A DNA stretch of 10,750 nucleotides from Synergistales bacterium (lineage in GTDB: Bacteria > Synergistota > Synergistia > Synergistales > Aminiphilaceae). The stretch covers positions 1-10,750 of the forward strand of contig JAIPGA010000083.1 of the NCBI GenBank assembly GCA_021736445.1, given 5' to 3'. The position numbers and the translations under genes are program-made. The notes below the pieces were generated by a model. That model saw only the letters and a list, made by a program, of their open reading frames with translations, searched no databases and was not told where the DNA came from. The number at the start of each line of letters is the position of its first letter. The stretch's first letter is position 1. Positions 1 through 10,750 of this stretch are shown piece after piece.

Positions 1-1133
1 TCCGGGACGAACCCCTCGTCGGCCTCCAGGGGCAGATGGACGGCCACCATCTCCCGCACCATCTCGGCGATGGCCGGCGAGGCGGTGAGCCCCGGGCTCT
101 CGATGCCGATGAGGTTGATCAGCCCCGGACAATCCGGAGACTCCTCGATGACGAAGTCCCTGTTGCCGCCTACCTCCGGCGGGGTCTGCTTGGGACGGAC
201 CCCGGCGAAACTCCGGATGAAGTCCCGCATGGAGAGCCCCGGCAGCAGCTCGCGGCCGTGCTCCCGCAGCGAGGCCATCACCTGCCGGGTGGTGGCGCAG
301 TCCTCGCGCTCCCCGACATACTCCGAGCTGGGGCCGATGAGGATGTTGCCCTCCACCGTGGGCGTCAGGTGGATGCCCAGGCCCGGGCTGTCCACCCGGG
401 GGGCGGGGTAGATCAGCGTGGCCACGCTGCCCGCGAGCCGCCGGTCCAGCACGTAGTACTCCCCCCGGCAGGGATAGTGCCGGTAGCCGTCGATGCCGGC
501 CATGGCGGCCACCCGGTCGGCGCCGAGGCCCGCCGCGTTGATGACCACCGGGGCGGAGACGTCACCCGAGGTAGTCTGCAGCGTGAAGCCCCCGGGGCCC
601 CGGTGGATCCCGGTCACCTCGCTCTCCAGGCGGAAGGCCGCGCCGCCCCGCAGGGCGTTCTCGGCCAGGGCGATGGTCAGACTGTAGGGGCAGACGATCC
701 CGCTGGAGGGGGAGTGGAGCGCCGCCACCCCTTCCACGCCGGGCTGGATCCGCCGCATGGCCCCGGGGCCGATCAGCTCCAGCCCCGGCACGCCGTTGGC
801 CTCGCCCTGCTCCCTGATCCGGTGGAGTTCCGGTATCTCCGCTGTACAGCCTGCGACGGTGAGCTTGCCGATCCGCTGCATGGGCACCCGCAGCTCCCGG
901 CAGAGCGGCGCCATCAGCTCGTTGCCCCGCACGTCGAGACGGGCCCGCAGCGTCCCGGGGCGGTAGTTGATGCCCGAATGCACCACGCCGCTGTTCCGGC
1001 AGCTGGTGCCCCAGCCTACGTCGGCCTCCTTCTCCACCACGCAGACCGAGAGCCTGTAACGGGCGAGCTCCCTGGCGACGGCGCAGCCCACCACACCTGC
1101 GCCGACAATGGCCACATCGGCCTCTGACGTCAC
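1..1133 (-). CDS. FAD-dependent oxidoreductase, LhgO/GlpA-like (COG0579 type); partial, C-terminus beyond the left window edge
   Basis: Hand translation of the minus strand from GTG at 1133 (alternative GTG at 1115) gives VTSEADVAIVGAGVVGCAVARELARYRLSVCVVEKEADVGWGTSCRNSGVVHSGINY..., a Rossmann GxGxxG FAD-binding N-terminus, followed by ...IESPGLTASPAIAEMV..., typical of L-2-hydroxyglutarate oxidase / glycerol-3-P dehydrogenase-like enzymes. The frame stays open to position 1. The ORF track misses it because it runs off the window. RBS AGGAGGG at 1146-1152 (minus). Confidence 0.8.
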   Translation of the reverse strand, partial: MTSEADVAIVGAGVVGCAVARELARYRLSVCVVEKEADVGWGTSCRNSGVVHSGINYRPGTLRARLDVRGNELMAPLCRELRVPMQRIGKLTVAGCTAEIPELHRIREQGEANGVPGLELIGPGAMRRIQPGVEGVAALHSPSSGIVCPYSLTIALAENALRGGAAFRLESEVTGIHRGPGGFTLQTTSGDVSAPVVINAAGLGADRVAAMAGIDGYRHYPCRGEYYVLDRRLAGSVATLIYPAPRVDSPGLGIHLTPTVEGNILIGPSSEYVGEREDCATTRQVMASLREHGRELLPGLSMRDFIRSFAGVRPKQTPPEVGGNRDFVIEESPDCPGLINLIGIESPGLTASPAIAEMVREMVAVHLPLEADEGFVP

Positions 1134-1158
1134 GATCCCGACCACTCCCTCCTGCTAC

Positions 1159-1187
1159 AGAAAAACGGCCCTCGTGCTGCAGGGCCG
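1159..1187 (-). terminator. Rho-independent terminator downstream of the encapsulin gene
   Basis: Minus-strand reading CGGCCCT-gcagcacg-AGGGCCG gives a perfect 7-bp GC stem (1166-1172 / 1181-1187) with an 8-nt loop, followed immediately by TTTTTCT (reverse complement of 1159-1165). It lies 57 nt past the encapsulin stop. Confidence 0.65.
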
Positions 1188-1243
1188 CTTGAACATCGCT
1201 CTTGTGTTGTCCGCAGCGTCTGGGCTGCAGATCCCCCGTGGCG

Positions 1244-2050
1244 TTACGAGACGTTGAAGGGGATCACGGCCTCCGGTGTGATCACGCGGAAGGTGAAGGA
1301 TTCCGTGAGGAACAGCTGGACATCCTTCTCCGTGGCCGCCACGTAGCCCACCGAGAGGTCCTGCCCGATGGTGAGCTCCAGATCGTCGCCGCGGGTGGAG
1401 ACCAGGTAGCTCTCGTTGAAATGGGGCAGATAGATGATGTCCCCGCCGTCGGTGATGCTGTCGATGCGCTTGGTCATGGGATAGCCGGTCTCCACGGAGT
1501 AGATGGTGTTCCAGAGATCCTTGCCGGCCACCAGGGCGTAGGGCCCCTCCACGCCGTCGTCGCGCATGGTGTTCACCGCTTCGGCGAGCGCGCGGAGGAT
1601 GCCTGAATTCCTGGCCGTATCCATGTCGATGGAGCGGCTGCTGCCCACCTGCTTCATGCCCACGATACAGCCCTCGTCCAGGCCGTGGTAGACGGCCTCC
1701 TCCTCGAAGCGGGCCATGCTGCGGGCGGCCTCGTCGAGGTTGCCGAAATCGATGTCTTTGGCGCCGCGCACGGCGTTGTCCAGCTCCCAGCGGTCCAGCG
1801 TGAAGGTGCACCGTGTCTCCACCAGGGGCATGATCTCGTGGACGCCGAAGCCCACGTCGTCCTTCTTCCGGTCTTCGTCCACGCGGATCCGGCCGATGGG
1901 ACGGGCCGCGTACTCCCAGCCGTGGGGGCCGGAGACATCTACAAAGCGCCGCGCCGAAAGGTGGCCCTTCAGCACGCTCCGCGCCTGGTCGTCGATCTCC
2001 TCCCACGCCTCGTCGGGAATGGGGGAGAGTGCTCGCTTGAGAATATCCAT
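1244..2050 (-). CDS. Family 1 encapsulin nanocompartment shell protein (HK97-fold, linocin M18-like)
   Basis: The 268-aa product MDILKRALSPIPDEAWEEIDDQARSVLKGHLSARRFVDVSGPHGWEYAA...TFTLDRWELDN...GPYALV...LTIGQDLSVGYVAATEKDVQLFLTESFTFRVITPEA aligns along its whole length with the Thermotoga maritima-type encapsulin ([27 protein letters not shown]...GPYGWEYAA...TFTLDLWELDN...ILGQDLSIGY...LFITETFTFQV). Strong RBS GGAAAGGAG 8 nt upstream of the ATG (reverse complement of 2059-2067). Confidence 0.95.
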   Translation of the reverse strand: MDILKRALSPIPDEAWEEIDDQARSVLKGHLSARRFVDVSGPHGWEYAARPIGRIRVDEDRKKDDVGFGVHEIMPLVETRCTFTLDRWELDNAVRGAKDIDFGNLDEAARSMARFEEEAVYHGLDEGCIVGMKQVGSSRSIDMDTARNSGILRALAEAVNTMRDDGVEGPYALVAGKDLWNTIYSVETGYPMTKRIDSITDGGDIIYLPHFNESYLVSTRGDDLELTIGQDLSVGYVAATEKDVQLFLTESFTFRVITPEAVIPFNVS

Positions 2051-2140
2051 GCTATACGCTCCTTTCCGTGTTCAGCTTCGTCGTTCCTCCGCCCGGCCAG
2101 AGGGAAGATCCCCGGGGCCGGGGGGCGTCCGCAGGGTCGT

Positions 2141-2494
2141 CTACTTCAGACTCCCCAGGCCGAGTCCCGAGCCGTCGGTCCCCGGGGAACCGCCCTCGCC
2201 GTTTCCGCCGCCTGCCTCCTCGACCTCGGTGATCGGTGCCTCGGTGAAGAGGTAGGTCCGGAGATTCTCCTCCCAGGCGGGTACGTTCCTGCGCAGCCAT
2301 TCCAGCACCATGCAGGCGTGTTCGATCTCCTCGTCGCGGTTGTGGGCGAGGATATCGCCGATGGTGTCGTCGCCGGTGGTGGCCACCCGCTGGTGGTACC
2401 AGTCCACGGCCTCCACTTCCTCCTTGAGGCTGTTCAACGCACGATGGATATCCCTGTCTTTCGCCTGGAGTTCCTCTGTCGGTTCATGATACAT
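2141..2494 (-). CDS. Encapsulated ferritin-like protein (EncFtn/Flp) cargo with C-terminal encapsulin targeting peptide
   Basis: The 117-aa product MYHEPTEELQAKDRDIHRALNSLKEEVEAVDWYHQRV...ILAHNRDEEIEHACMVLEWLRRN...LRTYLFTEAPI carries the EncFtn hallmark motifs (HEP..., EAVDWYxQR, HNRDEExEHAxMxLEWLRR, YLFT). It ends in a Gly-rich linker plus GSGLGLGSLK, matching the family-1 cargo-loading peptide consensus (GSLxIGSLK-like). It sits immediately upstream of the shell gene. Confidence 0.9.
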   Translation of the reverse strand: MYHEPTEELQAKDRDIHRALNSLKEEVEAVDWYHQRVATTGDDTIGDILAHNRDEEIEHACMVLEWLRRNVPAWEENLRTYLFTEAPITEVEEAGGGNGEGGSPGTDGSGLGLGSLK

Positions 2495-2514: not shown

Positions 2515-2545
2515 CGCAAGAATTACAGTTCCAATTATACACCTT
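2515..2545 (-). promoter_or_regulatory. Candidate promoter of the EncFtn-encapsulin operon in an AT-rich island (perfect -10 TATAAT)
   Basis: The minus strand reads ggtgTATAATtgg, with TATAAT being the reverse complement of 2534-2539, about 40 nt upstream of the EncFtn ATG. It is embedded in a roughly 30-bp AT-rich patch that is conspicuous in GC-rich DNA. The patch contains the direct repeats AATTACA (2521-2527) and AATTATA (2533-2539), 12 bp apart. No good -35 hexamer is present (GC hairpin instead). Confidence 0.45.
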
Positions 2546-2551
2546 TCGGCC

Positions 2552-2577
2552 GGGGCGCCGCCAACAGGCTGCGCCCC
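2552..2577. other. GC-rich stem-loop between the sulfotransferase stop and the EncFtn promoter; possible U-tract-less terminator or operator
   Basis: GGGGCGC (2552-2558) and GCGCCCC (2571-2577) form a perfect 7-bp inverted repeat with a 12-nt loop. It lies 84 nt past the sulfotransferase stop (minus strand) and directly upstream of the TATAAT. No T-tract follows on either strand. Confidence 0.35.
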
Positions 2578-2660: not shown

Positions 2661-3644
2661 TCACTGCAGACCAAACCGGCGGAGTCCTTCACGGACCCTG
2701 TCCAGCTCCTCTCCGGTGAGTTCCGCCGACGCCCGGCGCACCGCGAAGGGCTCCGGAGGCTCCTGACGCCGCCGAAGACCGGGCCAGGCATCCTCCAGCT
2801 TCTCCGCCACAGCGGAAAGCACTCCAGCCGGGTCGCGGCAGAGTTCTTCGTAGCGCAGCTCCAGCTTCCGCTCCGCCGGCAGACGGGCAAGCTCGTTGTG
2901 CAGATAGCGGTCGATATAGAAAAGCTGTCCCGCCACCTGGATGCCATAGTGCTCCCGGCAGAGCCGGTCGGCCTCCCTGGGCCGCAGCGAGGCCCACTCC
3001 TCCACGCTTCCCTTGATGCCCCTGCGGAGCTTGACCAGCGACGCGGCATTCTCGAGAGGATCCCTGGTGATCCGGACGAAGATGCTCCGCGGGAAGAGAT
3101 CGGCCATCTCCCGGGTGAACCAGAGGGCGTGGAAGGATTTGAAGACCAGCGGCTTCCCGAAGGCTGCGGCCATGGCGGTGATCCTGCGGACCAGCAGCTC
3201 CCAGTCGATCCCGCTGCGGTCCACAGGCTCCCCCAGATCGCGGTTGCCCAGCAGCTCCGACCAGAAGTATCCGAACTCGTGGGGCTCCTCGATGCCTCCG
3301 GTGCGGCCGTAGCAGGAACGGAAATCCGTCCGGGGCCGGTCGGAGAGGAGCTTTCTGGACAGCGAGACGCCCACTGTCGGCACCTTCCAGAAGGCGGCGA
3401 TCAGATTGTTGATGTAGCCCACATCGAGACAGGAGGAGACCAGCTGCGACAGAAGCGTCGTCCCCGACCGGGGCGCACCGACAAGGAAGACAGGCACTGG
3501 TTCCTCTCCACAGCCGTCAAGGGTCTTCTCCAGCGTCGCTTCCAGCTCTTCCAGACTGATGTTGAGATTCTCCAGAAGGTTCTCTTCGAAGGCGTCCTTC
3601 TCCTTCCAGATCAGCGGCTCCTCCTGCGTCGGATCTGTCCCCAT
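2661..3644 (-). CDS. Sulfotransferase family protein (PAPS-dependent, Sulfotransfer_3-like)
   Basis: The 327-aa product contains VFLVGAPRSGTTLLSQLV, a 5'-phosphosulfate-binding P-loop (PRSGTT) of sulfotransferases. Further on, ...RITRDPLENAASLV... is a 3'-phosphate-binding RDP motif. Its ATG at 3644 lies 2 nt after the stop of the upstream gene (cTAGccATG), i.e. translationally coupled. RBS GGAGG 9 nt upstream. Confidence 0.8.
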   Translation of the reverse strand: MGTDPTQEEPLIWKEKDAFEENLLENLNISLEELEATLEKTLDGCGEEPVPVFLVGAPRSGTTLLSQLVSSCLDVGYINNLIAAFWKVPTVGVSLSRKLLSDRPRTDFRSCYGRTGGIEEPHEFGYFWSELLGNRDLGEPVDRSGIDWELLVRRITAMAAAFGKPLVFKSFHALWFTREMADLFPRSIFVRITRDPLENAASLVKLRRGIKGSVEEWASLRPREADRLCREHYGIQVAGQLFYIDRYLHNELARLPAERKLELRYEELCRDPAGVLSAVAEKLEDAWPGLRRRQEPPEPFAVRRASAELTGEELDRVREGLRRFGLQ

Positions 3645-3646
3645 GG

Positions 3647-4303
3647 CTAGGTTCCTCCCCCTTCCGTGTCCTCCCGGTCCTGGAAGGCTCTCCGGAGCGC
3701 GGCGAAGTCAGGCCGCTCGCCGGAGAAGGTCTGCTCGTCCATACCCTCTCGCTGAATCACCTTGCCCAGGGTCTTCCAGAGGATCTCCAGGTCCAGCGAA
3801 AAGCTCCAGCTGTCCACATACTCCAGATCCTTCCGGAACCGTTCCTCCCAGGAGAGGAGATAGCGTCCCTCGATCTGGGCGAGGCCGGTGATCCCCGGAG
3901 GCAGTCTGTGCCGTTCCATCAGGCGCGGCGGATAGTGGGGCAGATAGACCATCAGCAGCGGCCGGGGACCGACGATACTCATCTCCCCTTTGAGGACGTT
4001 GAACAGCTGCGGCAGCTCGTCGAGACTGCTCTTTCTGAGAAAACGGCCCAGAGGAGTCAGTCTTTCTGCATTAGGCAGCAGATTTCCATCCTGGTCACGT
4101 TCATTTGTCATGGTCCGGAATTTGAGAAGATAGAAAGGAACGCCGCCCCGGCCGGGACGCTGCTGTCGGAAGAGCACGGGCCGTCCCATGGAAACCAGAA
4201 CCAGAAGCGCCACCGCCGCGATGACAGGGGAGAGCAGCAGTGTCGCCGTTCCGGCAATCGTAAGATCGAAGAGACGTTTCCGCAGTGGGTAGGAGGTCTT
4301 CAT
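3647..4303 (-). CDS. PglC-like small monotopic phosphoglycosyltransferase (bacterial sugar transferase family; Und-P:UDP-diamino-sugar-1-P transferase)
   Basis: From the internal ATG at 4303 (RBS GAGGGG 8 nt upstream; the track ORF 3647-4522 is over-extended at its 5' end) the product [66 protein letters not shown]...[31 protein letters not shown]...[13 protein letters not shown]...[20 protein letters not shown] aligns essentially residue-for-residue with Campylobacter PglC (RIFDF...LLSPVIL...IFKFKTM...[24 protein letters not shown]...RPGITGWAQVNGR). It has an extra roughly 30-aa acidic C-terminal tail. Confidence 0.85.
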
Positions 4304-4319
4304 CAATTGTCGCCCCTCA

Positions 4320-5390
4320 TCAGGCTCTGTAGGCCGGGAAGAACCCCTCGCGACGGGGCTCGGCCAGCCCCCGGGACCGTTTCCAGGCGCAGCGCTGTTC
4401 CAGCAGGTCGTCGTACCGCCTGGGATCGACGATCCACTTCCAGATCTTGAAATCGTGCCGCTCCCCGGAAAAACCGGCCTTGAAGAAAAACAGGGAGTCT
4501 TCCCTGTTCCCGACACCTCCACCGAGATGGAAGCGGGACGCCCCCTTCCCGCAGGACCAGCGGCGGACGGTGTCGAAGACCAGTTTCATCGGCGCGGCCG
4601 AGAGGAAGGCCCCCCTGGTCGCGCCGAGGTGATACTGCACCACATCCCCGCAGAGGGTGAATATCCCCGCCGCGGCGAGCTCATCCCGGTAGGTGCAGAC
4701 AAAGAGCTTCGCCGTGAAGTCGCGGATCCGGAGGAAGTCCTCGAAATACCCCCGGGGAAAGAAATAGGATTCCCCGGCCTGGACACGCTCCATATTCTCG
4801 TAATAGGCCTCCACAAAAGCCGCGAGCCAGTCGCCCCTGGTATCGCAGAGACAGCAAAACCCATCCCGCTTCAGCTTGTTGATCCCCCGCTTGTGGTTCT
4901 TCCGGTGCTGCCTCCACTGTTCGTCCAGCGACATCGAGAGATCCACGGACACCGTCTCCGAAAGAGGCACAACTTCCCCCCGGGAGAGCAGCTCATCCTG
5001 TCGGGGAAGCAGGGGGTGCAGCCGCGAGAAGACCGACAGGATCCCCCGGCTGTCGCAGTAGGATGCCAGTTCGTCCATGAAGGGAGCCAGGAGAGGACGG
5101 GCGTTCTCGCCCGAAACGAGAGGCCCGGGATAGCCGTAGACCGATGTGGCGTCCCGCAGCCCTTCGCCGCGGAGTCCTTCCACCGTACCGTCGAGGGAGC
5201 GGATCAGCAGCGGCAGCGCCACGAAGGCCTCGCCCCCGGAGAGAACAAAGAGCAGCGGCTCGCCCTCTCCGTTCTGTCGGGCGAGCTCGTGGTATGAGGC
5301 CAGATGATAGAAATCGTACCGCCCGGCACGTCGGATTGTCTGGTTCCACCTTGCAGGCTCCTGTAGCGACAAGAGATGTAGTTTGGTCAC
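4320..5390 (-). CDS. FemAB-family (BioF2-like / Acetyltransf_6, GNAT-fold) acyl- or aminoacyl-transferase
   Basis: The product carries SVYGYPGPLVSGEN (compare FemA FYSNRGPVIDYEN) and VVQYHLGATRGAFLSAAPMKLVFDTVRRW (compare FemA VVYYAGGTSNAFRHFAGSYAVQWEMINYA). The start is more likely GTG at 5390 (GGAG 7 nt upstream) than the track's TTG at 5423, which lacks an RBS. Its stop overlaps the RBS of the PglC-like gene. Confidence 0.65.
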   Translation of the reverse strand: MTKLHLLSLQEPARWNQTIRRAGRYDFYHLASYHELARQNGEGEPLLFVLSGGEAFVALPLLIRSLDGTVEGLRGEGLRDATSVYGYPGPLVSGENARPLLAPFMDELASYCDSRGILSVFSRLHPLLPRQDELLSRGEVVPLSETVSVDLSMSLDEQWRQHRKNHKRGINKLKRDGFCCLCDTRGDWLAAFVEAYYENMERVQAGESYFFPRGYFEDFLRIRDFTAKLFVCTYRDELAAAGIFTLCGDVVQYHLGATRGAFLSAAPMKLVFDTVRRWSCGKGASRFHLGGGVGNREDSLFFFKAGFSGERHDFKIWKWIVDPRRYDDLLEQRCAWKRSRGLAEPRREGFFPAYRA

Positions 5391-5431
5391 ATGATCACTC
5401 CAAGCTGACGTTGCGGTATGCAACCCACATA

Positions 5432-7258
5432 TCAGACCATTACCCTTTGCAGTGTTTCCATCAACCCTGCATCGTCTTCTTCGTTGAGCAGATCCGCGAT
5501 CGCAGCCCCCACAGATTCGACGGCAACCCCCTCATTCCTGGACAGGAAGATCTTCTCGTGGGCCGTGCGGTCCACGCAGTCCGGGTCGTAGAAGAGCTCC
5601 TCGAAGAGCTTCTCGCCGGGGCGCTTGCCGGTGAAGGCGATCTGGATGTCTTTGCCCGGGGTGTAGCCGTGGAGGCGGATGAGCATCTCCGCCAGCTCGA
5701 CGATCCGCACCGGTTCGCCCATGTCGAGGACGAAGAGCTCGCCGCCCCTGCCCAGCGCCGCCGACTGGAGCACCAGGCTCACCGCCTCGGGGATGAGCAT
5801 GAAGTAGCGCCGCATCTCCGGGTGGGTCACCGTCACCGGGCCGCCCGAAGCGATCTGCTCCTCGAACTTGGGGACCACGCTCCCCCGGCTGCCCAGGACG
5901 TTGCCGAAGCGCACCGCCGCATAGGCCGTTTCGGGGAACACCCGCTGCTGTTCCTGCAGCACCAGCTCGGCCAGCCGCTTGGTGGCGCCCATGACGTTGG
6001 CGGGGTTCACCGCTTTGTCGGTGGAGATCATCACCATCCGGCTGCAGCCCTGTTCGCCGGCGAGACGGGCCACCGTAGCGGTCCCGTGGGCGTTCACGCG
6101 GAGCGCCTCCCTGGCGTTGCTCTCCATGAGGGGCACATGCTTGTGCGCCGCGGCGTGGAAGACGATATCCGGCGTGTATTTCGCAAAGACCCGCTCCATG
6201 GAGGGCGCGTCGGCCACGTCGGCCACCACGGGGATGACGGGGTGCTCCGTGCAGCCTTCCAGCAGCCTGTAGAGGGAGTGTTCCCCGTGGCCCAGGGCCA
6301 CCACGTCGCTGGGGGCGTACTCCAGCACCTGTCGGCAGATCTCGCTGCCGATGGACCCCCCCGCGCCGGTCACCAGCACCCGCCGGCCCCGGAGCAGCGC
6401 CCCGATGCCGCCCATGTCGAGCTCCACCGGCTCCCTGCCCAGGAGGTCTTCCAGCCTCACATTGCGGAGCCGGTTCATGGAAACGCCGCGGCCTGCCAGT
6501 TCGTGGAGCGAAGGCAGCACCCGCACCTCCACACCCTCCTCGGCGAGCCGGTCCAGCAGCCCCCGCAGCAGACGCCCGGCGGCGCTGGGGATCGCCACCA
6601 GGACAACCTCCACGCCGTTCCGGTCGATGAGGCCGGGAAGCTCCGCAACCATTCCCAGGACAGTCAGTCCGGCGATCTGCATCCCCCGCTTGGCCGGATC
6701 GTCGTCAACAAAACCCGCCAGCTCCAGGTCGCCGTCGTTGCGCTGCACGTCCCGGGCCAGAAGCGTCCCCGCCTCGCCGGCGCCCACCACTAGAGCACGG
6801 CGGCGTTTGGCTCCGGAGGGGGCGACAGGGGCCATCCGGCAGAGCCGCCAGGAGACCCGCAGCGCCGCCAGCAGCATGAGCCCCGAGATAGCCATGATCG
6901 CCAGGGAGGTGCGGGGAACGATGAGCCACTCGGGGAGGGCCGTCACCACCCAGAAGAGCAGAAGGCCGGGCAGGTACCACCGGGCGAGCCGGAGGTACTC
7001 CTCCACGCTGGCCTGTGGCCAGAGCACCCGGTAGAGCCCGCCGATCCAGAGGGAGGCGGCGATGGAAAGGGAAAACAGCAGCGCCGCCAGGGCGCAGTCC
7101 GCCAGATAGCGGGGCTCCAGAAAGAGGGTCAGCCGCAGGGCGTAGCCGATATAGGCGGCGAAGGCCAGCAACAGAAGATCCAGCGCGACCAGGCGTCTCC
7201 GGTTCCCCGCCCAGGCAAGCCACTGCCCCGCCAGCCAGAGCTTAGCCCGCCGCACCAT
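5432..7258 (-). CDS. PglF/CapD/WbpM-like membrane-bound UDP-GlcNAc 4,6-dehydratase (polysaccharide biosynthesis protein, SDR-extended)
   Basis: The 608-aa product has an N-terminal region of about 140 aa with 4 predicted TM helices (LLLLAFAAYIGYALRL..., LLLFWVVTALPEWLIV...). A Rossmann-like GxxGxxG segment (ALVVGAGEAGTLL) follows. The catalytic domain starts at VLVTGAGGSIGSEICRQVL, with ...MISTDKAVNPANVMGATKRLAE... and RFGNVLGSRGSV; TGAGGSIG, STDKAV and GATK are canonical for the family. Its ATG at 7258 overlaps the upstream gene's end by 17 nt. Confidence 0.9.
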   Translation of the reverse strand: MVRRAKLWLAGQWLAWAGNRRRLVALDLLLLAFAAYIGYALRLTLFLEPRYLADCALAALLFSLSIAASLWIGGLYRVLWPQASVEEYLRLARWYLPGLLLFWVVTALPEWLIVPRTSLAIMAISGLMLLAALRVSWRLCRMAPVAPSGAKRRRALVVGAGEAGTLLARDVQRNDGDLELAGFVDDDPAKRGMQIAGLTVLGMVAELPGLIDRNGVEVVLVAIPSAAGRLLRGLLDRLAEEGVEVRVLPSLHELAGRGVSMNRLRNVRLEDLLGREPVELDMGGIGALLRGRRVLVTGAGGSIGSEICRQVLEYAPSDVVALGHGEHSLYRLLEGCTEHPVIPVVADVADAPSMERVFAKYTPDIVFHAAAHKHVPLMESNAREALRVNAHGTATVARLAGEQGCSRMVMISTDKAVNPANVMGATKRLAELVLQEQQRVFPETAYAAVRFGNVLGSRGSVVPKFEEQIASGGPVTVTHPEMRRYFMLIPEAVSLVLQSAALGRGGELFVLDMGEPVRIVELAEMLIRLHGYTPGKDIQIAFTGKRPGEKLFEELFYDPDCVDRTAHEKIFLSRNEGVAVESVGAAIADLLNEEDDAGLMETLQRVMV

Positions 7259-8426
7259 GAAGGGCCTCGTGGAGGCTGTCTGTCACATAGTCGATCTCCT
7301 CGTCGGACAGATCGGTGTAGAACGGCAGCGCCAGCACCGAGGCGCAGACCGCTTCGAGCCCCGGGAAGTCGCCCTCCGCGAACCCGAACCGCTCGGCGTA
7401 GAAGGGCTGGTAGGGGATGGGCGTGAAGTAGGGCTTGCAGGCCACACCCCTGGCCTGGAGGGCCTCCATGACGGCGTCCCGGTCGATCCCTTCATCCAGG
7501 CGCACCACGTAGACAAACCAGCTCATCCGGTCGCACCAGTCACCCGGCGCCGGCGGGGTCACCCCGGGGATCGAAGCGAGCCGCCGGCCGTACCGTTCGG
7601 CCACTGCGGCGCGCCGGTCCACGATCGCGTCGAGCCGGCCGATCTGCGACCGGCCCAGGGCCGCCGACATCTCGTCGATCCGGTAGTTGTAGCCCAGCCG
7701 CACATGAGCGAGCCAGGCGCCGCTGTCGTCCCGCCCCTGGTTGATCAGCGACCGGACCGTCGCCGCGATGTCGTCGCGGTCGGTGACGATCATGCCGCCC
7801 TCGCCGGTGGTGATCTGCTTGTTGGGGTAGAAGGCGAAGGCGCCGGCGTCGCCGAAGGCCCCGCACATCCGCCCGAACGCCCTGGTGCCCAGGGCCTCGC
7901 AGCTGTCCTCCACAAAGAACAGCCCGTACTCCGTGGCGATCCGCTCGTACTCGGCCAGCGGCGCGGGCATGCCGAAGACATCCACCAGCAGCATCCCCCT
8001 GAGGCGTTCCGGGGCCAGGGGGGCATCCTCGCCGGGGAGGGTGACGGCCCCCTGGCGCACGCCCTCGATGGTCTGCCGGAGCGTTTCCGGCGAGGGCACC
8101 AGCGTTTCGGGATCGATATCCCCAAAGAGCGGCGCCGCCCCCGTCATGAGGATCACATTGCTGCTGGAGATAAAGCTGAAGGGCGTGGTGAGCACCACAT
8201 CGCCCGGCCCGACACCCAGTGCCTCCAGGGTCACGTGCAGCGCCGCCGTGCCGCTGGAGCAGGCCACGGCGTGCCGCACCCCCACCGTTTCGGCGACGGC
8301 CTGCTCGAAGGCGGCGATCTCCGGGCCCAGGGCCACACGGCCCGACCGGAGCACCGCCAGCACGGCCTGGATGTCGCCGTCGCTGATCTGTCCGCTGGAA
8401 AGGGGGATCTCACGCACCCGCACCAC
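7242..8426 (-). CDS. DegT/DnrJ/EryC1/StrS-family PLP-dependent sugar aminotransferase (PglE/WbpE-like)
   Basis: The 394-aa product has the N-terminal EIPLSSGQISDGDIQAVLAVLRSGRVALGPEIAAFEQAVAETVGVRHAVACSSGTAALHVTLEALGVGPGDVVLTTPFSFISS. This is the classic DegT fold with GPEVxxFE, SSGTxAL and TTPFTF-type motifs. The PLP-lysine motif is FAFYPNKQITTGEGG. Start is GTG at 8426 or, with better RBS spacing (GAGGTGG, 6 nt), GTG at 8417. Confidence 0.9.
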   Translation of the reverse strand: MVRVREIPLSSGQISDGDIQAVLAVLRSGRVALGPEIAAFEQAVAETVGVRHAVACSSGTAALHVTLEALGVGPGDVVLTTPFSFISSSNVILMTGAAPLFGDIDPETLVPSPETLRQTIEGVRQGAVTLPGEDAPLAPERLRGMLLVDVFGMPAPLAEYERIATEYGLFFVEDSCEALGTRAFGRMCGAFGDAGAFAFYPNKQITTGEGGMIVTDRDDIAATVRSLINQGRDDSGAWLAHVRLGYNYRIDEMSAALGRSQIGRLDAIVDRRAAVAERYGRRLASIPGVTPPAPGDWCDRMSWFVYVVRLDEGIDRDAVMEALQARGVACKPYFTPIPYQPFYAERFGFAEGDFPGLEAVCASVLALPFYTDLSDEEIDYVTDSLHEALHGAAG

Positions 8427-8455
8427 CTCGTTTCACAAAGAATGGTCCACGAAGA

Positions 8456-8489
8456 CGCAGCGGGCGACCCCAACCGGCCACCCGCTGCG
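8456..8489 (-). other. GC stem-loop between the small ORF and the aminotransferase gene; candidate attenuator/partial terminator or 5'-UTR structure
   Basis: CGCAGCGGG (8456-8464) and CCCGCTGCG (8481-8489) form a perfect 9-bp stem with a 16-nt loop. It lies 35 nt past the small gene's stop and 30 nt before the GTG of the aminotransferase. The following minus-strand sequence GTCTTCGTGGACCATTCTTTGTG is only moderately T-rich. Confidence 0.3.
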
Positions 8490-8523
8490 CTCCTGCCGTC
8501 TATCCCGGACGCGCCCAGGCCGG

Positions 8524-8961
8524 CTAGAGGATCAGGTTGCTGCCGCCCTGTTGCCCGCCGCCGCGGCGCTCCAGTTCGTTGAGCATGTCCGGCGAGGCCA
8601 CGTCGATACGGGGCTGCTGCTGGGACTGCTGGGCCTCCTTGAGCTGCTGCTCGTACTCGGCCATGTTCCGTTTCAGGCCCTCCACATCGCCCTTGATCCA
8701 CTGGAGGATGCTCTCGGCAACGGCCTCCACGGTCTCCTCGTCGGGAAGCTCGCTGACGAGCTCCAGCTCCTTGAGCATATTGTGTTCCTCCCGGATGGAG
8801 TCCTTGATCTCCTCGTCGGTGATCAGGCCCTTGTTGTAGAGAACCCTGGAGATGATATTGAGCCGGGTCTTCAGGTTCTCGTCGGCCATGGCCAGGCCTT
8901 CCATCCTGCTGAGGAGCATCTGGATCAGTTCGTCGAGATTTACCTGTCTCTGCGACGCCAT
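8524..8961 (-). CDS. Hypothetical small acidic, predicted all-helical/coiled-coil protein (145 aa) with Gly/Gln-rich linker and hydrophobic C-terminal tail
   Basis: The ATG at 8961 has a strong RBS (AAAGGAGG, 8-nt spacer). The product is MASQRQVNLDELIQMLLSRMEGLAMADENLKTRLNIISRVLYNKGLITDEEIKDSIREEHNMLKELELVSELPDEETVEAVAESILQWIKGDVEGLKRNMAEYEQQLKEAQQSQQQPRIDVASPDMLNELERRGGGQQGGSNLIL. It has an ordinary amino-acid composition, unlike the antisense artefact ORFs. I could not place it in a family from memory. Confidence 0.7.
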   Translation of the reverse strand: MASQRQVNLDELIQMLLSRMEGLAMADENLKTRLNIISRVLYNKGLITDEEIKDSIREEHNMLKELELVSELPDEETVEAVAESILQWIKGDVEGLKRNMAEYEQQLKEAQQSQQQPRIDVASPDMLNELERRGGGQQGGSNLIL

Positions 8962-10184: not shown

Positions 10185-10750
10185 ATGCCGGGACGCCACG
10201 GCAGGAGAGGTCACGACAGAGCGCCGGGGGAACGCCGATGGTACATCCAGACCCTCAAGGAGGCGGGGTACCGGGTCACCAGCCAGCGCCGGACCATTAT
10301 CGACGTCCTGCTGGCCCACAGAGGCGAGCATCTCAACGCACGGGAGCTGATGGACCATATCGCCGGGGAGGACCCCGGCGTGGGCTTCGCTACGGTCTAC
10401 CGGACGCTGGAGATCCTGGTGGAGACAAATCTGCTGCACCAGATCAACCTGGAGGAGGGGTTCGCCCGCTACGAGGTGCCCGACGACCGCATGCACATCC
10501 ACCTCTTCTGCTGCCGCTGCGGCAGGGTGATCCACCTCCCCGAGGACGGCGACAAGGAGCAGACCCTCGCCGCCTGGGCGGAGGGCACGGGATTCTCGCT
10601 GCTGCCGCAGACCCTGGAGCTCCAGGGGCTCTGCGAGGACTGCCGGAGGGAGGCGGCCGCCCCCGGCAGGCCGAGACGACGTGGCCGGTGCGGCAACCGG
10701 ATCGTCGAGAATGGGCCCTGGTGCCCACAAGTCCGGGGCCAAGGGGGCTT
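10185..10750 (+). CDS. Fur-family metalloregulator (Fur/PerR/Zur-type), 3' end beyond the right window edge
   Basis: Hand translation gives MPGRHGRRGHDRAPGERRWYIQTLKEAGYRVTSQRRTIIDVLLAHRGEHLNARELMDHIAGEDPGVGFATVYRTLEILVETNLLHQINLEEGFARYEVPDDRMHIHLFCCRCGRVIHLPEDGDKEQTLAAWAEGTGFSLLPQTLELQGLCEDCRR.... It aligns with E. coli Fur (LKKAGLKVTLPRLKILEVL...ATVYRVLNQF...HHDHLICLDCGKVIEF...GHCAEGDC) and has two CxxC pairs forming a structural Zn site. There is no stop codon before the window end. Confidence 0.8.
   Translation, partial: MPGRHGRRGHDRAPGERRWYIQTLKEAGYRVTSQRRTIIDVLLAHRGEHLNARELMDHIAGEDPGVGFATVYRTLEILVETNLLHQINLEEGFARYEVPDDRMHIHLFCCRCGRVIHLPEDGDKEQTLAAWAEGTGFSLLPQTLELQGLCEDCRREAAAPGRPRRRGRCGNRIVENGPWCPQVRGQGG

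Follow-up and report, generated by a model that had tools for sequence, protein, structure and literature searches.

A complete and intact two-gene operon of the family 1 (classical) encapsulin type, with a ferritin-like protein (Flp) of the EncFtn class as its cargo, is very probably encoded at positions 1244-2494 of contig JAIPGA010000083.1 (an uncultured Synergistales bacterium, assembly GCA_021736445.1), of which we analysed a stretch of 10,750 nucleotides (nt), hereafter the window. The cargo gene lies 90 nt upstream of the shell gene on the same (minus) strand, and the same arrangement, in which a ferritin-like cargo bearing a targeting peptide directly precedes the shell gene, was found in all 12 related genome loci compared, which represent at least eight phylum-level groups. 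An earlier reading of the window from its letters alone (the original prediction) had proposed this cargo-then-shell layout together with the families of both proteins; the related loci bear out the layout, and profile searches bear out the families with highly significant matches that exceed the cut-offs. The window's own flanking genes, a glycan-biosynthesis cluster on one side and a DAO/Fer2_BFD oxidoreductase on the other, are unrelated to the operon and were not found beside the related operons at loci with flanking sequence, some of it short, so that the two-gene unit appears as the conserved module.

Both gene models are sound, as their start codons are in register with those of homologues: the shell begins MDILKR (MEFLKR in Thermotoga maritima) and the cargo begins MYHEP (M(D/A)QYHEP in relatives). 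A 16-kb Logan contig from run SRR12088347 matches the window at 99.95% identity, and proteins identical to both products are already deposited in NCBI nr from a Synergistales metagenome-assembled genome (MAG), the shell as 'bacteriocin family protein' and the cargo as 'ferritin-like domain-containing protein'. The next-closest shells, 52-57% identical, come from Aminiphilus, Aminithiophilus, Synergistaceae and Thermovirga.

The shell protein

The shell protein matches PF04454 over the whole profile (1-253/253; E=4.7e-80, 268.9 bits against a cut-off of 24.3) and NF041155, the NCBIfam equivalog 'family 1 encapsulin nanocompartment shell protein', likewise end to end (1-261/261; 271 bits against a cut-off of 100). 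Its nearest solved relative is the encapsulin of T. maritima (42% identity; E=4e-69 across residues 1-263), followed by the shell of Haliangium ochraceum (4.5e-58) and then by the T=1 shells of Klebsiella pneumoniae, Rhodospirillum rubrum and mycobacteria, while the T=3 and T=4 shells of Myxococcus xanthus (EncA) and Q. thermotolerans match at about 1e-9 to 1e-10.

A three-way alignment of the window shell with the T. maritima shell and a plasmid-borne K. pneumoniae shell places R34, D38, T219, D231 and L232 at the peptide-pocket positions R34, D38, T217, D229 and I230 of the latter. Mutagenesis in K. pneumoniae showed that Arg34, Asp38, Asp229 and Ile230 bind the targeting peptide, with Thr217 as an alternative partner of its Lys (PMC10960027). 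R34 and D231 do not vary among the 43 closest homologues of the window shell, at least 90% of which conserve D38; the targeting-peptide groove, whose loss would have spoken against the original prediction, is thus kept.

W88, also conserved in at least 90% of these homologues, corresponds to the Trp of the T. maritima shell that stacks on flavin at the outer shell surface and is required for flavin binding (numbered Trp87 in PMC8086157 and W90 in PMC8610991). In the literature, the frequency of this Trp is put at only about 10% among PF04454 sequences and about 35% among Flp-encapsulins, with anaerobes as the source of almost all, and most shells of non-anaerobes are without it (PMC8610991). 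Its presence fits a Synergistales host. Because the flavin-stacking residue is kept, the shell is probably a flavoprotein, by analogy with other Flp-encapsulins of anaerobes. At the five-fold pore, the Tyr is retained (Y190, equivalent to T. maritima Y188), the loop is one residue shorter, and T. maritima His187 is absent, as it is from most encapsulins.

An AlphaFold2 model of the shell built on the 43-sequence alignment (mean predicted local distance difference test score 94.2, predicted template modelling score 0.90) was compared with solved structures by Foldseek. It superimposes on the T=1 protomers 7kq5, 3dkt, 8u50 and 7oe2 with template modelling (TM) scores of 0.91-0.92 and an rmsd (root-mean-square deviation) of about 2.2 Å, compared with TM scores of 0.74-0.80 and, for many, an rmsd of about 7 Å on T=3 and T=4 protomers. 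The HK97 fold, with its P-domain, E-loop and A-domain, is matched to solved encapsulin protomers. The model thus agrees with the T=1 architecture expected in the original prediction and supports, without proving, a particle of 60 subunits. As read from sequence and model, the shell is folded like the HK97-type T=1 encapsulins, and on the luminal face of the P-domain it carries pocket residues that match the peptide at the cargo tail.

The EncFtn cargo

The upstream protein matches PF22277 (EncFtn-like) over profile positions 2-85/85 (E=1.6e-40; 137.2 bits against a curated cut-off of 27 bits) and NCBIfam TIGR04535, 'encapsulin-associated ferritin-like protein' (153.1 bits, cut-off 125). Against the EncB family NF058679 it scores 65 bits, under the cut-off of 90, and it is therefore not of the M. 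xanthus EncB subtype. Among solved structures, phmmer matched residues 3-117 to the EncFtn proteins of R. rubrum (E=2.8e-34) and H. ochraceum (E=2.2e-31), to which the ordered domain is about 55-60% identical. Flp cargos are the second-largest cargo class of family 1 encapsulins and occur in 23 bacterial phyla (PMC8346489).

In EncFtn of R. rubrum, the ferroxidase centre consists of Glu32, Glu62 and His65 (EXXH) and the entry site of Glu31, Glu34 and Trp38, with Tyr39 nearby (PMC11202242; bioRxiv 10.1101/785121). Alignment with this protein (offset +6) revealed that the ferroxidase residues are kept as E26, E56 and H59 and the entry-site residues as E25, E28 and W32, with Y33 in the place of Tyr39 near the entry site. 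The outer-surface motif HxxxEExEH is present as H51-NRD-E55-E56-I-E58-H59 and is found in all 120 EncFtn homologues among the matches listed. By these equivalences the cargo has every residue of the di-iron ferroxidase site, and the centre is predicted to form at the dimer interface.

Linker and targeting peptide

The cargo ends in ...EEAGGGNGEGGSPGTDGSGLGLGSLK, which comprises a flexible linker rich in Gly, Pro and Ser and, after it, a putative targeting (cargo-loading) peptide, GSGLGLGSLK (Table 1). The linker comes after the Pfam domain, which ends at residue 85, and aligns with the variable, gapped linkers in R. rubrum and H. ochraceum EncFtn; in the EncFtn class, the conserved targeting peptide follows a disordered Gly-rich linker of 10-40 amino acids (aa). 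The terminal peptide aligns with the targeting peptides of R. rubrum (GSLGIGSLK) and H. ochraceum (GSLGIGSLR), the latter of which has been resolved bound to its shell in 7OE2, with the core motif GxLGIxxL (PMC8791618). Relative to the T=1 consensus DGSLGIGSLKG (PMC7925596), the window sequence DGSGLGLGSLK has one inserted Gly and an Ile-to-Leu exchange, and its pattern reads hydrophobic-Gly-hydrophobic-x-Ser-Leu-Lys. The peptide retains the Gly hinge, the Ser, the terminal Lys and, correctly spaced, the three hydrophobic anchors, elements each found to be needed for loading in an alanine scan of the K. pneumoniae peptide (PMC10960027).

Within the best 120 EncFtn homologues, LGIGSL is the commonest peptide core (42 sequences), and LGLGSL, GLGLGRLKR and DLGLGDLR also occur. 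The 'GSGLG' variant recurs in the Spirochaetia MAG SKXS01000009.1, where an encapsulin-linked cargo (523-882, plus strand, of its locus) ends in GSGLGVGRLKS. That cargo, which tblastn with the window EncFtn did not detect, is a 119-aa protein of a different, T. maritima-Flp-like ferritin-like subtype (EYEAIQLY...DEEKVHAGEF). Since LGLGSL cores and the 'SG' prefix occur in homologues, the window peptide is, as judged from these tails, near-canonical and within natural variation. The original prediction had described a canonical loading peptide behind a Gly-rich linker: linker and peptide are both present, and 'canonical' gives way to 'near-canonical'.

These departures bear on the reading that the altered peptide binds weakly or not at all, so that EncFtn would mostly remain a free decamer, or that the shell has a T number above 1. 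Single Ala substitutions in the K. pneumoniae peptide can abolish loading (PMC10960027), the peptide differs from DGSLGIGSLKG at two positions, and the 90-nt spacer between cargo and shell genes is the longest among the 12 loci, those of the relatives measuring 1-63 nt. Against this, the exchange of Ile for Leu is conservative, the L-G-[ILV] spacing, the GSL and the terminal Lys are retained, and the tails of other encapsulin-linked Flps cited above are natural variants of the same kind. The T. maritima peptide GGDLGIRK lies further from the consensus and yet loads (PMC7925596), the pocket residues are intact, and T=3 and T=4 protomers fit the shell model much less well than T=1 protomers do. 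We therefore consider weak loading or a larger shell very unlikely.

Other identities for the shell gene

The deposited name of the shell protein suggests a bacteriocin, that is, a linocin M18-like antibacterial protein encoded beside an unrelated ferritin-like gene, and the Pfam family is still named Linocin_M18. This name, however, is a legacy designation shared by the entire family; the equivalog NF041155 specifies a family 1 encapsulin shell, all solved homologues are icosahedral shells, no signal peptide or secretion gene accompanies the protein, and the upstream product carries a shell-targeting peptide for which the shell has a matching pocket, so that a bacteriocin is highly improbable. 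Nor do we give appreciable weight to the reading that the gene belongs to a prophage or a phage remnant and encodes a major capsid protein of HK97 type. Encapsulins have the HK97 fold too, and confusion with phage capsids is frequent (PMC8346489), but genes for a terminase, portal, protease or tail are absent from the window, encapsulins make up all of the best matches by sequence and by structure (TM 0.9, E~1e-69), and a dedicated cargo with targeting peptide stands directly upstream in each of the 12 related loci. The three alternatives to a loaded T=1 encapsulin together account for only a very small share of the probability.

Transcription signals and the case against the operon

Downstream of the shell gene, folding with ViennaRNA and manual inspection revealed an intrinsic terminator whose hairpin (1188..1165, -15.8 kcal/mol alone) begins 55 nt past the stop codon and is followed at 1164..1157 by a tail in which 6 of 8 bases are T; six of the eight stem pairs are G-C. 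This is the terminator placed at 1159-1187 in the original prediction, and it is real. Upstream of the cargo gene, the candidate -10 hexamer at 2539..2534 is the sole minus-strand TATAAT in the window, and the GC content falls to 47% in 2450-2549 from about 65% around it. The hexamer and the dip that had been described as the operon's own promoter in an AT-rich island are thus both present; a full promoter was not recovered, and the dip is only modest. We consider it plausible that the operon has its own promoter, and a single transcript probably spans both genes, starting shortly upstream of the first of them, the cargo gene, and ending at the terminator past the shell gene. A GC-rich hairpin further upstream (Table 1) is the only element retained in the centroid fold of 2495-2600 and could possibly mark the boundary of the upstream transcription unit. 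For the shell gene, an AGGAG ribosome-binding site (RBS) stands at 2063..2059, 8 nt ahead of the ATG.

Table 1 Features of the encapsulin operon and its surroundings (window coordinates)
Feature	Position	Strand	Details or evidence
Shell gene, family 1 encapsulin, 268 aa	1244..2050	minus	Profile and structure-homologue matches
Cargo gene, EncFtn-type ferritin-like, 117 aa	2141..2494	minus	Profile and structure-homologue matches
Flexible Gly/Pro/Ser-rich linker of the cargo, A94-D107, AGGGNGEGGSPGTD	2174..2215	minus	Read from the translation
Putative C-terminal targeting (cargo-loading) peptide GSGLGLGSLK	2144..2173	minus	Alignment to R. rubrum and H. ochraceum tails
Cargo-shell intergenic spacer, 90 nt	2051..2140	minus	Sequence
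Intrinsic terminator	1157..1188	minus	8-bp GC-rich stem GCGGCCCU/AGGGCCGU, 8-nt loop, tail UUUUCUGU
Candidate -10 hexamer TATAAT (putative promoter)	2534..2539	minus	39 nt upstream of the cargo ATG
GC-rich hairpin GGGGCGC...GCGCCCC, without U-tract	2552..2577	minus	Between the sulfotransferase gene and the -10 hexamer

Several observations weigh against the operon as we read it. The promoter is supported by its -10 hexamer and by no other element: no -35-like hexamer lies 16-18 nt from the TATAAT, the best candidate being TTGGCG at 19 nt, and a consensus promoter and terminator scanner reported no full sigma-70 promoter in the region, which leaves the promoter unproven. The same scanner did not list the terminator at 1157-1188, whose hairpin meets the scanner's own stated criteria, so its negatives need caution. 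The RBS of the cargo gene, GGGG, stands 13 nt from the ATG, beyond the optimal distance, the targeting peptide departs from the consensus at the two positions described, and no Fur/PerR-type operator was seen. Finally, we infer assembly, T number, loading, ferroxidase activity and flavin binding by homology, the nearest solved shell being 42% identical. None of these observations contradicts the assignment as encapsulin and EncFtn.

Consensus scans for Fur, PerR and Zur operators in a 250-nt stretch directly upstream of the cargo gene yielded none that was convincing, in the window or in 11 relatives, and such an operator in the cargo promoter was rejected; the only nominal match in the window is a Zur-like site with four mismatches that is not palindromic. 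A Fur-family regulator gene (10185-10721, plus strand; PF01475, E=1e-27) runs to the end of the window, 7.7 kb from the operon and divergent from a Bmp gene, and scores below every NCBIfam Fur, PerR and Zur equivalog cut-off. Likewise rejected was the idea that leader or spacer holds a regulatory RNA: Rfam gave no match anywhere in the window, and the GC-rich spacer hairpin (-34.3 kcal/mol, z=-0.42) is no more stable than shuffled sequence.

Proposed function

By analogy with the solved R. rubrum and H. ochraceum proteins, EncFtn would form an annular decamer, and its flexible Gly-rich linker and GSGLGLGSLK peptide would tether decamers to shell protomers as 60 of these self-assemble into an icosahedron of about 24 nm. 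Fe(II) would pass through the shell pores and be oxidized at the di-iron site of the EncFtn dimer interface, and the Fe(III) mineral would be retained in the shell lumen, an iron sink that may buffer an anaerobe against Fenton chemistry and oxidative stress.

Systems of this kind are already well described, and the operon is a new, uncharacterized example whose sequence had already been deposited. With its recognition, two publicly misnamed MAG proteins can be relabelled as encapsulin shell and EncFtn cargo, and the anaerobe-associated Flp-encapsulins that have the flavin-binding Trp gain a Synergistales example. The natural peptide variant GSGLGLGSLK could interest those who engineer cargo loading. 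Past annotation the significance is small, and no new biological question is raised.

Neighbouring genes

Directly after the encapsulin terminator lies a gene for a flavin adenine dinucleotide (FAD)-dependent oxidoreductase (1-1145, minus strand; DAO domain, E=5e-74) that leaves the window at its edge. It starts with a GTG at 1145 (GVG...), preceded by its own RBS AGGAGGGAG. Its closest models are type 2 glycerol-3-phosphate oxidase and L-2-hydroxyglutarate oxidase, with scores below their cut-offs, and on the source contig the full-length protein has 499 aa and adds a Bfd-like [2Fe-2S] domain (Fer2_BFD).

This enzyme could be imagined as a cytoplasmic electron donor that reduces the shell flavin and remobilizes iron from an Flp-encapsulin in an anaerobe, in which case it would be the long-sought donor for iron release. 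The external flavin-binding Trp W88 is kept and a FAD/[2Fe-2S] oxidoreductase is encoded immediately downstream; set against this, the intrinsic terminator separates the gene from the operon, the protein resembles a metabolic enzyme of the glycerol-3-phosphate or L-2-hydroxyglutarate oxidase type, and none of the related loci with flanking sequence (some short) has it beside the operon. We regard such a role as very unlikely. Apart from it, a functional link to the operon was rejected for this oxidoreductase and for the upstream sulfotransferase, as neither was found beside a related operon at those loci.

Upstream of the operon and on the same strand, five genes at 2661-8426 (minus strand) form a glycan or cell-surface sugar cluster. 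They encode a DegT-type aminotransferase, a Polysacc_synt_2 dehydratase with an N-terminal membrane region, an Acetyltransf_6 (FemAB-like) protein, a Bac_transf initiating sugar transferase and a Sulfotransfer_3 protein, a composition that suggests a sulfated amino-sugar glycan.

A 145-aa open reading frame (ORF) at 8524..8961 (minus strand) encodes a conserved hypothetical protein without a Pfam or NCBIfam match. Its 17 metagenomic homologues (40-53% identity) share an invariant ILQWIKGDVEG and a conserved C-terminal KGGKLII (GGSNLIL in the window), and in both genomes, that of the window and that of a relative, the gene lies near Bmp/ABC-permease nucleoside-transport genes. Its Gly-rich C-terminus GGGQQGGSNLIL made it a candidate second cargo, which was rejected because the family tail KGGKLII is unlike any targeting peptide and the gene is not near an encapsulin in the relative, for which 154 kb of context is available. 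Long ORFs on the opposite strand (36-1127, 5144-6793, 7257-8582, all plus strand, and others; up to 549 aa) have no family matches and low-complexity translations rich in Arg, Gly and Pro; they are artefacts of the GC content of about 65% and not genes.

Comparison with known systems

The encapsulin of T. maritima (maritimacin, TM0785; PDB 3DKT, 7KQ5 and 7K5W), which has an Flp cargo, is the best match of the window shell in both sequence and structure. The two systems have in common protomers of the T=1 type, a cargo-then-shell operon and an anaerobic host, and the shells share the flavin Trp (T. maritima W87, W88 in the window) and the five-fold pore Tyr (Y188 and Y190, respectively). They differ in that the window shell lacks His187 and has Leu8 for T. 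maritima Phe8, that the window cargo is of the EncFtn type (PF22277/TIGR04535), closest to those of R. rubrum and H. ochraceum, and that its peptide is of the GSLGIGSLK type, whereas that of T. maritima, GGDLGIRK, contains an intra-peptide salt bridge.

For the cargo, the best matches are the EncFtn proteins of R. rubrum (Rru_A0973/A0974; PDB 5DA5 and 9RZU) and H. ochraceum (PDB 5N5F, 7OE2 and 7ODW), with which the window protein has an identical ferroxidase centre, entry site, Tyr39 and HxxxEExEH motif. All three end in a Gly-rich linker and a ...LG[IL]GSL[KR] tail; in the window, the linker is shorter (a chain of 117 aa against 140 and 131 aa), and in the peptide a Gly is added and Leu replaces Ile. 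The likeness to H. ochraceum extends to the shell (E=4.5e-58, TM 0.91).

The encapsulin of K. pneumoniae (PDB 8U50) shares with the window shell the fold of family 1 T=1 shells (TM 0.92) and has Gln at the position of the flavin Trp. Its cargo is a DyP peroxidase and not a ferritin-like protein, and its context is mobile, with FDH-DyP-Enc-RpoH carried on plasmids. Its pocket residues are conserved in the window shell, and the targeting peptides of the two systems share the pattern L-x-I-G-S-L-K.

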